Shown here: in pieces, positions 9,726-61,294 of the stretch
Position numbering within the stretch: position 1 is the first letter of the stretch
Layout: each line of letters starts with the position of its first letter
Assembly: GCF_000026545.1 (NCBI RefSeq)
Contig: NC_011601.1
Length of the DNA: 64,000 bases
Strand: one strand, 5' to 3'
Source of the DNA: Escherichia coli O127:H6 str. E2348/69
Lineage (GTDB): Bacteria; Pseudomonadota; Gammaproteobacteria; Enterobacterales; Enterobacteriaceae
Program-made: the position numbers and the translations under genes
The notes under the pieces: model-generated
What the model was told of the DNA's origin: nothing
Databases searched by the model: none
What the model saw: the letters and a program-made list of their open reading frames with translations, nothing else

Positions 9726-11267
<1,542 letters not shown>

Positions 11268-11335
11268 CCTTAAAGAAGCGTACTTTGAAGTGCTCACACA
11301 GATTGTCTGATGAAAATGAGCAGTAAAACCTCTAC

Positions 11336-11412
<77 letters not shown>

Positions 11413-11454
11413 AATTTGCACCGCAAATTTGAAGAGGTTTTAACTACATGTTAT

Positions 11455-11530
11455 GGGGCTATAGCTCAGCTGGGAGAGCGCCTGCTTTGCACGCAGGAGG
11501 TCTGCGGTTCGATCCCGCATAGCTCCACCA
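11455..11530 (+). tRNA. alaV: tRNA-Ala (TGC anticodon)
   Basis: GGGGCTATAGCTCAGCTGGGAGAGCGCCTGCTTTGCACGCAGGAGGTCTGCGGTTCGATCCCGCATAGCTCCACCA in spacer. Confidence 0.95.
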
Positions 11531-11713
11531 TCTCTGTAGTGATTAAATAAAAAATACTTCAGAGTGTACCTGCAAAGGTTCACTGCGAAGTTTTGCTCTT
11601 TAAAAATCTGGATCAAGCTGAAAATTGAAACACTGAACAACGAGAGTTGTTCGTGAGTCTCTCAAATTTTCGCAACACGATGATGGATCGCAAGAAACAT
11701 CTTCGGGTTGTGA

Positions 11714-14617
<2,904 letters not shown>

Positions 14618-14715
14618 ACAACGCCGAAGATGTTTTGGCGGATTGAGAGAAGATTTTCAGCCTGATACAGATTAAATCGACAGGTCATAACGTGACGTGT
14701 TGATAAAACAGAATT

Positions 14716-14835
14716 TGCCTGGCGGCCTTAGCGCGGTGGTCCCACCTGACCCCATGCCGAACTCAGAAGTGAAACGCCGTAGCGCCGATGGTAGTGTGGG
14801 GTCTCCCCATGCGAGAGTAGGGAACTGCCAGGCAT
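14716..14835 (+). rRNA. rrfH: 5S ribosomal RNA
   Basis: TGCCTGGCGGCC...GGAACTGCCAGGCAT, 120 nt. Confidence 0.95.
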
Positions 14836-14887
14836 CAAATTAAGCAGTAAGCCGGTCATAAAACCGGTGGTTGTAAAAGAATTCGGT

Positions 14888-14964
14888 GGAGCGGTAGTTC
14901 AGTCGGTTAGAATACCTGCCTGTCACGCAGGGGGTCGCGGGTTCGAATCCCGTCCGTTCCGCCA
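14888..14964 (+). tRNA. aspU: tRNA-Asp (GTC anticodon), distal gene of rrn operon
   Basis: GGAGCGGTAGTTCAGTCGGTTAGAATACCTGCCTGTCACGCAGGGGGTCGCGGGTTCGAATCCCGTCCGTTCCGCCA. Confidence 0.95.
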
Positions 14965-31146: not shown

Positions 31147-31438
31147 AATCTACCCCTACACAGTTAACAAACCACTCCTTAAGACCTGCTACTGCGCCTT
31201 TATCCATCACATTCTTTGGATGTGGCTCATGTGTGCTGAATTTGGTCGTTCCAATCTGAAATTTTCGTCTGGAGCCGTTGTTATTTTTTATTGTTCCACC
31301 CACAGCTTTAATGAGTGCAACAACATCATCCCATTTAATTCCAGATTTTGGCGGCTCCGTCATTACATCGTCGAATGTTTTTCTATGACGAGAGCCTAGC
31401 GCGCTGACCTTAATCATACTATCAATCCATGACGTCAT
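31139..31438 (-). CDS. HicA-like (YcfA-family) toxin candidate
   Basis: 99-aa ORF; segment GGTIKNNNGSRRKFQIGTTKFSTHEPHPKNVMDKGAVAGLKEW resembles HicA core; precedes HicB-like ORF with overlap. Confidence 0.45.
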   Translation of the reverse strand: MTSWIDSMIKVSALGSRHRKTFDDVMTEPPKSGIKWDDVVALIKAVGGTIKNNNGSRRKFQIGTTKFSTHEPHPKNVMDKGAVAGLKEWFVNCVGVDYE

Positions 31439-45400: not shown

Positions 45401-45476
45401 GCCGATATAGCTCAGTTGGTAGAGCAGCGCATTCGTAATGCGAAGGTCGTAGGTTCGACTCCTATTATCGGCACCA
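45401..45476 (+). tRNA. thrW: tRNA-Thr (CGT anticodon)
   Basis: GCCGATATAGCTCAGTTGGTAGAGCAGCGCATTCGTAATGCGAAGGTCGTAGGTTCGACTCCTATTATCGGCACCA. Confidence 0.9.
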
Positions 45477-50044: not shown

Positions 50045-50056
50045 TGCTTTGAATGA

Positions 50057-50087
50057 TAAAAATGGCGCAAATATAGCGCCATTTTTA
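50057..50087 (+). terminator. Rho-independent terminator after yagU
   Basis: AATGGCGC-aaatata-GCGCCATT hairpin followed by TTTTT. Confidence 0.65.
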
Positions 50088-50292
50088 TAGGTTAAAAACG
50101 TTGCTTTTCATATTCTGATGCGGACAGTAAGTGATCATATCGCGCTACTTCAGGATGATGTAGGTCCGGAGAACGCTACAGAAGAAGAGGCATTGTTGCT
50201 GGAAAATGGAAGAAGTTTCAGGTTTTGTTGTCCCTGAAAAACGAAGCCCCGCTATTACAGCTGGCGGGGCAATGCAATTAATTATTGTATAT

Positions 50293-58403: not shown

Positions 58404-58809
58404 TCAGTCATCTGTGCGTGTTACTCTAACTGGCACTCGAACGTCGGCGATGGGGTTACCGATGGATCTGGCCGTTCCTGTGGCGTAAACGTTTTTATGT
58501 CAGTACCAACAGATTTACCACATTTATCATCTTAACAGTTTGAGTGTAAATGCAGGCTGCGTCGCAAAGGGAGGAAACTGAGTGGCGTGTTCAGTCTAAA
58601 ATAGAGTTGATGCCAGCATACAGGGCGCAGCTGGTCAACAAGTCAACATTAATATAATGGAATATTCGGAGAGAAACGTCAGGCAGTTGACCTTAAATGA
58701 ACAGGAAGATACATCCCCAGGAAAATTAATGCTGGTGTAATAAATACACCAACATTAATCCGGTCTGATTATTAATCAGACAAATATCGTTAATTCGTCG
58801 AATTTTAAA

Positions 58810-58950
58810 TCAACGTTTTTTCTTACGACCCTGAACGGCCTTAAAACGTGGATTAGATTTACAAATCACATACAGCCGTCCTTTTCGCTTCACAATCTGA
58901 CAGTCTGGATGGCGTTCTTTTGCGGTACGCAGAGAGTTAAGGACTTTCAT
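58810..58950 (-). CDS. ykgO: 50S ribosomal protein L36 paralogue (zinc-independent type)
   Basis: Reverse-strand translation [46 protein letters not shown]; lacks the full Cys/His zinc ribbon; start overlaps ykgM stop (ATGA). Confidence 0.85.
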
Positions 58951-59216
58951 CATGCCCCCTTTTTCGTGCTAACAAAACGACCAAAACGTTGGGTGAACCG
59001 TGCAACATTTCCTTCTGATGCCACTGTTCTCAGCTTCCCTGTATAGAACGGGTGCGATTTCGAAGAGACATCAATTGTTACGTACGGATACGTTACGCCA
59101 TCCAGCTCAATCTCACGGTCTGTTTTGATAGTCGAGCCGATTTTAAAGTACTCATCAACGCTGGTGTCGTGGAACACCACAGTACGATACTCAGGATGGA
59201 TATTGGGTTTCATCAT
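58950..59216 (-). CDS. ykgM: 50S ribosomal protein L31 paralogue type B (zinc-independent)
   Basis: 88-aa [36 protein letters not shown]... lacking CxxC zinc motif. Confidence 0.9.
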
Positions 59217-59224
59217 TTTTACCT

Positions 59225-59242
59225 GTTATGTTATAACATAAC
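59225..59242. promoter_or_regulatory. Zur box (zinc uptake regulator operator) upstream of ykgM-ykgO
   Basis: Perfect 18-bp palindrome GTTATGTTATAACATAAC immediately upstream of ykgM start, resembling Zur consensus. Confidence 0.7.
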
Positions 59243-59577
59243 CGTAAAGATACATGCTCATCCGGATCATTTCAACACCCAATCACTGTGACTATTTGTG
59301 GGATGTGGAATTTCCGCAACGGGGAAGTCTGGCATTGTTAGCAGCCATTGGCGACGCTCCCATAAACGCCTGGATGAGTGATTGATGATGGTTTCGCTGA
59401 GAGTATGGATTTTTCGAGAATGGAGGCTATCTCCACTTTACTGGCCGATGATTTATTGCAGCATGATTGATTACCTGACAATGTGTATTCCTCTCCCACG
59501 GATATAATAATTACTTACAAAAAAGGGAGAGGATGCATATTTTAAATATCACTGAAGTGAACAGTTTATTGCCGTTA

Positions 59578-59679
59578 TTAATAGAAATGGAGAAATAAAT
59601 AGGCGTATTCTACAATTGCGACAAAAACAACGATATTAATCAGTTTATGACTGATTTGCTGTACTTTATTCTCTTTCAT
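59578..59679 (-). CDS. ykgR: Small hydrophobic protein YkgR (33 aa)
   Basis: Reverse-strand translation MKENKVQQISHKLINIVVFVAIVEYAYLFLHFY; single TM helix. Confidence 0.6.
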   Translation of the reverse strand: MKENKVQQISHKLINIVVFVAIVEYAYLFLHFY

Positions 59680-60151: not shown

Positions 60152-61294
60152 TTAATCCATTAACGGAAACCAGCCAGTTCCTTTCGATGCCTGAATTTGA
60201 TCCCATAGTTTATCCGGAATGGTTAATTCAGGAATGTGTTGTGGATTAAGGGCTGTTTGAATTTCATGACTTCTACCTGATTCAGCTAAAGTCACCCATT
60301 CTGGATTTATCACCAGCCCTTTACCGATCGCAACAAGTGGCAGGCCAGCGGAAATTGCTTCTTGAGCCTGAGACGGTGTGCGTATTTTACCTGCGGCGAT
60401 TACCGGCACTCTGCCTGCAATATGATTTAAAATCAATTCAATAGTTCGGGGGCCATTTGGCGACTCAACAGGGTAGCTATCGTTAATACTGACCAGCGAG
60501 GTATGTATATACGAAATACCGGATGAAATGAGCCGATCAAGGAGTTTATAAGTATCCTCTATCCGCAGTCCCCCTGTTACAGATTCTTCAGGAGATATTC
60601 TGTAACCGATAGCAAAGGGCTTTGTCGCATATTCATAGACTACATTTTTTACTTCCTGTAATACGGCCAGCGGGAAGCGCATACGTCCTTCAAGATCTCC
60701 TCCCCATCGGTCATTACGCTGGTTAAATAGAGGGGAGAAGAAATTCTGCAGAAGGAATCCGTGCGCACCATGAAGTTCAACGCCATCAAAACCTGCTTTA
60801 ATCGCCCTTTTTGTGACATCTCCGAATGCTCTAATGGTTTCCTGAATTTCGTTTTCAGTCATTTCCCTGCTTTGTACCACTCTCTTCATAAAGTCACCAG
60901 ATTTTACGCTTGATGCGCTGGCACTAATAACATCGTTATTTGGCACAAGCTCCGGGATGGCTTTATTACCGGCGTGGAAAATCTGTAAAATAGCCGGAGC
61001 ACCGCCACTTTTTGCTGCAGCTGCTAACTTTTCAAGGCTGTTAATGAAACGGTCGTCATACGCGGCAAATTCATGAGTAAACCCAATGCCGCTTGGCGTG
61101 ACATAGGTGCATCCTGTTATTACTAAACCAACATTTTGTGAGCGACGTTTATAAAATTCGAGTTCTTGCTCAGAGATGGTTCCATCAGGATTAGCTGACC
61201 AGGTTGTCATAGGAGCCATAACGATACGATTACGTAGCTTTATTTTTTCTGTCAGCATAAAAGGAGAAAACAATGATGGGTGTTTATTTGTCAT
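60152..61294 (-). CDS. NADH:flavin oxidoreductase (Old Yellow Enzyme family)
   Basis: 380-aa ORF with OYE-like TIM-barrel motifs (APMTTWSA, HGAHGFLLQNFFSP); not recalled at this position in K-12. Confidence 0.75.
   Translation of the reverse strand: MTNKHPSLFSPFMLTEKIKLRNRIVMAPMTTWSANPDGTISEQELEFYKRRSQNVGLVITGCTYVTPSGIGFTHEFAAYDDRFINSLEKLAAAAKSGGAPAILQIFHAGNKAIPELVPNNDVISASASSVKSGDFMKRVVQSREMTENEIQETIRAFGDVTKRAIKAGFDGVELHGAHGFLLQNFFSPLFNQRNDRWGGDLEGRMRFPLAVLQEVKNVVYEYATKPFAIGYRISPEESVTGGLRIEDTYKLLDRLISSGISYIHTSLVSINDSYPVESPNGPRTIELILNHIAGRVPVIAAGKIRTPSQAQEAISAGLPLVAIGKGLVINPEWVTLAESGRSHEIQTALNPQHIPELTIPDKLWDQIQASKGTGWFPLMD

Follow-up and report, generated by a model that had tools for sequence, protein, structure and literature searches.

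Here we found that positions 58,810 to 59,243 of a 64,000-nucleotide stretch of DNA from Escherichia coli O127:H6 str. E2348/69 (contig NC_011601.1, hereafter the window) almost certainly comprise the E. coli ykgM-ykgO operon, a pair of genes, repressed by the zinc sensor Zur, for back-up forms of the ribosomal proteins L31 and L36. This feature is already known in detail, and nothing new about it emerges from the window. The locus was called ykgM-ykgO because 1201 bp around the operon are 100% identical to the corresponding DNA of E. coli CFT073, Nissle 1917, ATCC 25922, LF82, and other B2 strains, because both products match type B protein models, and because both are identical to chains of PDB entry 6I7V. 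The RefSeq annotation of the matching B2 loci lists ykgR, ykgM (type B L31), ykgO (type B L36), and ykgL, and the ykgM-ykgO operon was found in about 5050 of 5426 complete E. coli genomes.

The first gene, ykgM (58950..59213, minus strand), encodes a type B, cysteine-free bL31 (bL31B) of 87 aa, as called from the open reading frame, RefSeq, Pfam, and NCBIfam. Read from its first ATG, the frame spans 58950..59216 and gives 88 aa, and the RefSeq start at 59213 gives 87 aa; the upstream ATG at 59216 was rejected as the true start because Pfam homology begins at the second ATG. Pfam model PF01197 matches YkgM at 87.1 bits (cut-off 27), with model positions 1-65 of 65 covered. NF002462, “type B 50S ribosomal protein L31”, scores 122.8 bits (cut-off 86), and YkgM stays below the cut-off of 70 on the two other full-length L31 models (58.9 on NF000612, 53.7 on NF001809). 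In an alignment with RpmE of K-12, YkgM carries a 12-residue insertion, and C16, C18, C37, and C40 are all replaced (DVCSKCHP becomes DVSSKSHP), leaving no cysteine in the protein. Of 81 YkgM orthologues, 79 likewise have no cysteine. Over residues 1-68, YkgM is identical to chain D7 of 6I7V, which is named “50S ribosomal protein L31 type B”. The initial annotation had described ykgM as an L31 of type B that lacks the CxxC pair, and both the missing cysteines and the NCBIfam type B score above cut-off bear this out.

The second gene, ykgO (58810..58950, minus strand), encodes a type B bL36 (bL36B) of 46 aa, called from the same four sources. Its frame runs from the first ATG over 58810..58953 (47 aa), and the RefSeq start at 58950 yields 46 aa. 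YkgO scores 68.5 bits on PF00444 (cut-off 26.1) and 90.9 bits on NF002021, “type B 50S ribosomal protein L36” (cut-off 70), and its residues 1-45 are identical to chain C5 of 6I7V (“50S ribosomal protein L36 2”). Both scores above cut-off and the chain identity agree with the earlier assignment of ykgO as an L36 paralogue.

Both proteins had also been called zinc-independent. For YkgM this is directly evident from the absence of cysteine; for YkgO it is less self-evident. Judged from the alignment with RpmJ (L36), the Cys3-His zinc site of L36 is disrupted in YkgO, yet the change affects just half of the four ligand positions: C11 becomes H14 and H33 becomes F36, and C14 and C27 persist as C17 and C30. 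The resulting His/Cys/Cys pattern is conserved in 80 of 81 orthologues, and the fourth L36 ligand (His to Phe) is the only one clearly lost. A review takes the zinc-binding motif to be missing from YkgO (PMC7873864), and no direct metal analysis of YkgO was found in the literature searched. It is improbable, in our estimate, that YkgO is not truly metal-free, with His14, Cys17, and Cys30 holding zinc or another metal weakly. If YkgO did bind metal, the L31 half of the operon alone would be a clean zinc-sparing switch.

Just upstream of ykgM lies the operator (59224..59243, given without strand), an 18-bp perfect palindrome, GTTATGTTATAACATAAC (59225-59242), set in a 20-bp site for two Zur dimers. 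The palindrome and its position had been noted earlier and are exact: GTTATGTTATAACATAAC is perfectly self-complementary, with 11 nt between it and the downstream ykgM ATG, and it has no second copy in the window even when up to three mismatches are allowed (0/100 shuffles). Palindromy by itself is not significant and is weak evidence for a site. Since 34 of 100 simulated 64-kb windows contain some perfect 18-bp palindrome, we did not use it as an argument. Palindromes with arms of at least 7 are in fact depleted in the real window, with one (this site) against 5.3 expected.

The assignment to Zur is supported by the motif itself, and nothing contradicts it. From the crystal structure of (Zur2)2 on DNA, Gilston et al. 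derived the skeleton RNNNYRNNRYNNYRNNNY, which has TATA at its centre (PMC4219657), and GTTATGTTATAACATAAC matches it at all eight constrained positions; RNNNYRNNRYNNYRNNNY is uninformative alone, with 258 matches on the plus strand of the window. The 20-mer pattern TGWNAYRWTATAWYRTNWCA fits 59224-59243 with one mismatch, and this is the sole site in the window with two or fewer mismatches (0.15 expected), a match that is circular because TGWNAYRWTATAWYRTNWCA was partly derived from the ykgM operator. For that reason the ykgM site was left out of the weight matrix, which was built only from the K-12 znuA/C, zinT, and pliG operators. On this independent matrix the ykgM site scores 24.6 bits, close to the 25.7-28.0 bits of the training operators. 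Among 200 simulated windows the highest score was 20.7 bits and the mean of the maxima was 13.0, so that none reached 24.6. The check proposed in the initial annotation, scoring the palindrome with a Zur weight matrix, thus places it far beyond chance. The next best position in the window, 31279-31298, scores 13.2 bits, the level of the simulated maxima, and was rejected as a second Zur site.

The ykgM operator shares its 20-bp architecture with the znuA/znuC, zinT, and pliG operators, including the central TATA and the overlapping RNNNY elements. It differs from them in being a perfect palindrome, where theirs are imperfect. The pliG operator is also bound through a single-dimer intermediate (PMC4219657). 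An older 23-bp gamma-proteobacterial consensus, GAAATGTTATA-N-TATAACATTTC, has no match in the window at three or fewer mismatches; its best alignment, still at the ykgM site, has 6 mismatches in 22 positions. This consensus has an odd centre and the ykgM site is even-centred, and the structure-based motif describes the site better.

The experiments that the initial annotation called for are already published: Zur binding and its consequences have been measured on sequences identical or nearly identical to the window's. In EMSA, the K-12 L31p operator gave a Kd-app of 0.025e-18 M2, the tightest of four operators, with cooperative binding by a dimer of Zur dimers, and L31p was repressed 560-fold in wild type compared with a zur deletion (PMC4219657). 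A chromosomal ykgM-lacZ fusion is silent in wild type and very highly expressed in a zur::kan strain, and the chelator TPEN raises its expression almost 1000-fold (PMC7297116). In Nissle 1917 treated with calprotectin, ykgM rises about 2500-fold and ykgO about 1000-fold (PMC10410751). RNA-seq and reporters were used for Nissle, and EMSA, RT-PCR, and lacZ for K-12. The K-12 data, obtained on an 18-mer identical to the one in the window (PMC4219657, PMC7297116), agree with the earlier claim that Zur regulates the pair. The claim that the pair is derepressed under zinc limitation holds as well, given the response to TPEN (PMC7297116) and the response to calprotectin at a Nissle locus that is 100% identical to the window (PMC10410751).

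The proteins themselves have been followed onto the ribosome. Mutations in zur suppress the slow growth of rpmE deletion strains by allowing YkgM to take the place of L31, and ribosomes of zur mutants contain one copy each of YkgM and YkgO (PMC9966373). Replacement of both L31 and L36 on ribosomes is reported (PMC9966373; PMC7873864), and the 6I7V chains are identical to the window's proteins, which upholds the proposed role of the pair as substitutes for L31 and L36. The rpmE leader provides a route by which YkgM (L31p) represses the synthesis of L31 (PMC9825181).

We then compared orthologous loci. A scan of one genome per species returned 80 of them from about 30 genera, including Escherichia, Citrobacter, Kluyvera, Enterobacter, Klebsiella, Salmonella, Serratia, Photorhabdus, Brenneria, and Vibrio; tallies are given over 81 loci. 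An L36 paralogue directly follows ykgM in all 81, and a related box lies upstream of ykgM at a near-constant distance from the ATG, again in 81 of 81. The 20-bp site ends 11-13 nt before the ykgM ATG in 71 loci, and the best score upstream of ykgM on the independent matrix is at least 15 bits in 80. The box carries 1.59 bits of information per position, compared with 0.34 in the flank, taken as the 100 bases upstream. A perfect palindrome is present in only six of the 81 loci. In most genera the ATG-proximal (right) arm drifts (for example AACAAAAC and AACAATAC), and the left arm has no compensating changes.

The other elements around the operator are predictions. A sigma-70 -35 hexamer, TTGAAA (59270..59275, minus strand), was found by consensus scan and is identical in K-12. 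It is separated by a 17-bp spacer from a predicted -10 hexamer, TATCTT (59247..59252, minus strand), which has 9 of 12 matches in the same type of scan. Both hexamers are only consensus matches, and the scan of the region returned two such sites where chance predicts 3.1. Conservation points to the same hexamers: TTG at 59275-59273 is conserved at 90% or more over 81 upstream regions whose flank is otherwise unconserved, T59252 and A59251 of the -10 are conserved at 0.8-0.9 (81 loci), and these TTG and TA positions are the sole conserved upstream positions besides the box. Four bp separate the end of the predicted -10 from the palindrome downstream of it, and a transcription start about 7 nt downstream of the -10 would therefore fall inside the box. 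We found no mapped E. coli ykgMO transcription start in the literature searched. The Zur footprint that has been mapped at ykgM of Y. pestis overlaps the -10 there (PMC2706843). A putative Shine-Dalgarno AGG for ykgM (59222..59224, minus strand) abuts the Zur box and lies 8 nt before the ATG at 59213.

Two other readings of the palindrome were weighed against a Zur operator. It could be the operator of another member of the Fur family, such as an iron Fur box, or of some unrelated protein that binds palindromes. Fur boxes, like Zur boxes, are AT-rich palindromes, and the 6 mismatches to the old 23-bp Zur consensus make it only a moderate fit. Against this, the 19-bp Fur consensus has at least 9 mismatches throughout 59200-59300, worse than at hundreds of random window positions, and two features that Gilston et al. 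regard as Zur-specific, the central TATA and the RNNNY spacing, are present (PMC4219657). It also scores like the genuine Zur operators on a matrix that excludes it, and published work on the identical 18-mer shows both that Zur binds it and that expression depends on zur (PMC4219657, PMC7297116). We therefore regard recognition by a regulator other than Zur as extremely improbable. The palindrome might instead act as an RNA hairpin in the ykgM 5' leader, affecting translation or stability, rather than as a DNA operator. With the box 11 nt from the start codon and abutting the AGG, at least part of it is probably transcribed. The predicted fold of the ykgM leader, however, is only -6.1 kcal/mol (z = -0.28), with 69 of 200 shuffles as stable, and with a start inside the left arm, as expected from the predicted -10, the complete hairpin could not form. 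The right arm drifts in orthologues without compensation in the left, which favours recognition by a protein over an RNA stem. The hairpin reading has next to no chance of being correct, and we keep the palindrome as a Zur operator.

The two genes meet at a single base. With the RefSeq starts, position 58950 is shared by the ykgM stop codon TGA (58952-58950) and the ykgO ATG (58950-58948) in the motif TGATG, in agreement with the one-nucleotide overlap described earlier. The accompanying motif was misplaced, as “ATGA at 58950-58952” assigns a four-letter motif to three positions; ATGA occupies 58953-58950 and corresponds to a 4-nt overlap through an in-frame upstream ATG (58953). This upstream ATG is probably not the real ykgO start. 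It was rejected because homology begins at the second Met, because the codon is not conserved, and because its Shine-Dalgarno spacing is 1 nt. In all 80 orthologues the start codon lines up with the second ATG, which is also where position 1 of the Pfam L36 model falls, and the upstream codon is ATG here, GTG in K-12, and GTG or CTG in some Kluyvera. A Shine-Dalgarno sequence read for ykgO, AGGGGG (58955..58960, minus strand), lies within the last ykgM codons; 4 nt separate it from the annotated start at 58950, compared with 1 nt for the upstream ATG. Of 81 orthologues, 79 carry an SD-like tetramer at -16..-4 of the ykgO start.

The overlap suggests that translation of ykgO may be coupled to that of ykgM, an arrangement with which independent initiation is equally compatible. 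Spacing at the junction is -4 to +5 nt in 73 of the 81 loci (-4 or -1 in 18, 0 to +5 in 55), +9 to +18 in seven, and +197 in one. Since the overlap is absent at many junctions, ykgO must be expressed without it in many species. Together with the SD-like motif that precedes ykgO in nearly every locus, this lack of conservation would fit a ykgO that initiates independently at its own SD, the overlap being incidental gene packing. That possibility bears on the coupling claim only, and we consider it plausible but less likely than not. A junction of 5 nt or less in 73 loci, with the SD inside the ykgM coding sequence, is the classic layout for re-initiation by a terminating ribosome that has unfolded the site. 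A caution given in PMC9825181 is that the ykgO knockout made there could have affected expression of ykgM, its neighbour in the same operon. The two mechanisms are not mutually exclusive, and no experiment on the dependence of ykgO translation upon that of ykgM was found in the literature searched.

Downstream of ykgO, between the convergent ykgO and ykgL genes, there is a terminator-like hairpin (58721..58761, minus strand) with a 15-17 bp stem and a 5-nt loop, followed by UUUU. RNA folding of 58715-58815 gives -35.7 kcal/mol (z = -6.5), and 0 of 200 shuffles are as stable. A simple terminator scan made no call at 58721-58761, probably since it needs at least 5 T and the site has 4. Fig. 2A of PMC7297116 shows a terminator downstream of ykgO. 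Known RNA families around the operon were rejected, the only match being a chance-level folP hit from Rfam over the terminator hairpins (20 bits against a gathering threshold of 99, E = 0.79).

Among the closest known systems, E. coli K-12 ykgM-ykgO has the same genes in the same order, the one-base overlap, and the neighbours ykgR and ykgL. The 18-bp palindrome, the -35, the -10, and both SD regions are identical, and identity is ~98% over 701 aligned bases. A few SNPs separate the two. One at 59244, C in the window and T in K-12, lies two bases outside the palindrome, within the ~30-bp footprint but beyond the 20-bp recognition site. An intact flavin oxidoreductase of 380 aa is encoded upstream of ykgR in this B2-type strain, whereas K-12 has only the ykgP remnant there. 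At ykgM-ykgO itself the differences from K-12 are trivial. The K-12 Zur operator was reportedly predicted by Panina in 2003. Nissle 1917 ykgMO is 100% identical over 1201 bp (promoter, operator, and both genes), with no difference detected; it shares the window's C at 59244 and responds strongly (PMC10410751).

Y. pestis ykgM-rpmJ2 and B. subtilis ytiA (rpmEB) are comparable Zur-regulated systems. Each has a Zur box over the core promoter of a cysteine-free L31 paralogue, an overlap that is predicted for the window's operon, and both paralogues displace zinc-binding L31 (PMC2706843, PMC7363858). The Y. pestis ykgM box is imperfect, GATGTTACATTATAACATA (PMC2706843). In B. subtilis, the box is of the Gram-positive 9-1-9 type and there is no linked L36 paralogue (PMC4219657, PMC7363858).

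The operon also occurs in records labelled as plasmids. These comprise K-12 laboratory plasmids of 214-242 kb, three smaller records of 10-69 kb, and others of 1.3-4.9 Mb. The 214-242 kb K-12 plasmids are probably F-primes. The 1.3-4.9 Mb records look like misfiled chromosomes. A mobile zinc module on plasmids was rejected, as the listed plasmid records with ykgMO contain none.

Taken as a whole, ykgM and ykgO form one transcription unit with a predicted sigma-70 promoter, and the operator lies just after the predicted -10, where transcription is expected to start. Under zinc sufficiency, a pair of zinc-loaded Zur dimers binds the palindrome cooperatively and silences the operon several hundred-fold. 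Bound Zur probably blocks RNA polymerase; we infer promoter occlusion in E. coli because the predicted -10 ends so close upstream that the box covers the start, the exact position of which is likewise a prediction. When zinc is scarce, Zur loses its sensing zinc and leaves the DNA, and the operon is transcribed, with the transcript probably ending at the hairpin and UUUU at 58721-58761. YkgM and YkgO then substitute for zinc-binding L31 and L36 on the ribosome, allowing translation to go on with less zinc, and YkgM represses rpmE (L31) translation as well. Release of zinc from the displaced L31 and L36 may be a benefit of the exchange.

The main benefit could instead be a fail-safe for unmetallated L31 and L36, combined with stationary-phase remodelling and rpmE repression, rather than zinc release. 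In wild-type cells entering stationary phase, bL31B replaces bL31A, and the paralogues differ in fitness during cyclic growth (PMC7363858). Compared with L31, YkgM binds ribosomes more strongly, and it rescues the growth of rpmE deletion strains (PMC9966373); L31 synthesis is repressed by L31p (PMC9825181). This account is not exclusive with zinc sparing, however. Having the tightest operator of the Zur regulon ties expression to severe zinc depletion (PMC4219657), and the zinc-reservoir model is the one given in reviews (PMC9966373; PMC7873864). We consider it unlikely, though a serious contender, that the fail-safe function is the main one, and zinc release is the benefit we favour. The choice between the two leaves the identity of the sequence feature unchanged.

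The exchange of L31 for L31p is a model for ribosome heterogeneity and metal economy. The promoter allele in the window is that of Nissle 1917, whose ykgMO promoter has been engineered as a calprotectin/zinc biosensor (PMC10410751; PMC12279244) and is used in that form for gut inflammation.

Both ykgM and ykgO open with a tandem ATGATG on the minus strand (59211-59216 and 58948-58953, respectively). In each doublet, the second ATG is the predicted start, being the one favoured by both homology and conservation. For ykgO, the doublet reads GTGATG in the comparison strain K-12 rather than the ATGATG of the window. Between the predicted -35 element and the ykgM start codon, the sole difference from K-12 is at position 59244, which is C in the window and in B2 strains and T in K-12. 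This position lies two bases beyond the Zur box palindrome, yet within the approximately 30-bp Zur footprint. Perfect palindromes are depleted across the window: simulations matched for composition gave 5.3 on average with arms of 7 bp or more, and here the Zur box is the sole example found.

A 33-amino acid ORF, MKENKVQQISHKLINIVVFVAIVEYAYLFLHFY (59578-59679, minus strand), annotated in RefSeq as the small membrane protein YkgR, shares its strand with ykgM and sits 364 bp upstream of that gene. Further along, an intact 380-amino acid NADH-dependent flavin oxidoreductase ORF occupies 60152-61294 (minus strand). Its counterpart in the comparison strain CFT073 is annotated as frameshifted, although the CFT073 record contains N's and indels here; in K-12 only the ykgP pseudogene remnant is left. 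On the other side, ykgL (58550-58775, plus strand) converges on ykgO, with two hairpins (58763-58781 and 58721-58761) between the converging genes; in CFT073, ykgL is annotated as a frameshifted pseudogene.

More broadly, the window contains a complete rRNA operon (16S, tRNA-Ile, tRNA-Ala, 23S, 5S, and tRNA-Asp; 9726-14964), a second tRNA-Asp (23112-23188), and tRNA-Thr(CGT) (45401-45476). Rfam matches above the gathering score were found to naRNA4/CssrE (28000-28077, plus strand, 80.6 bits) and IS009 (50050-50250, plus strand, 190 bits). Collinearity with CFT073 is incomplete over the full length, with tRNA-Thr shifted by about 3.9 kb and the island genes pic and vat present within the CFT073 stretch matching the window.

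Of 5426 complete E. coli genomes, roughly 370 (about 7%) give no ykgMO match. Among the matches listed, the "plasmid" copies are on K-12 laboratory plasmids of 214-242 kb, which we presume to be F-primes, on smaller records of 10-69 kb, or on megabase-sized records filed as plasmids.

YkgO is described in reviews as zinc-free; our literature search found no direct metal measurement on it. Alignment to L36 places the zinc-ligand positions at H14, C17, C30, and F36 (window 58813-58950, minus strand). Two of the four are still Cys and a third is His; the fourth alone has been lost (His to Phe). This H/C/C pattern is found in 80 of the 81 orthologues.
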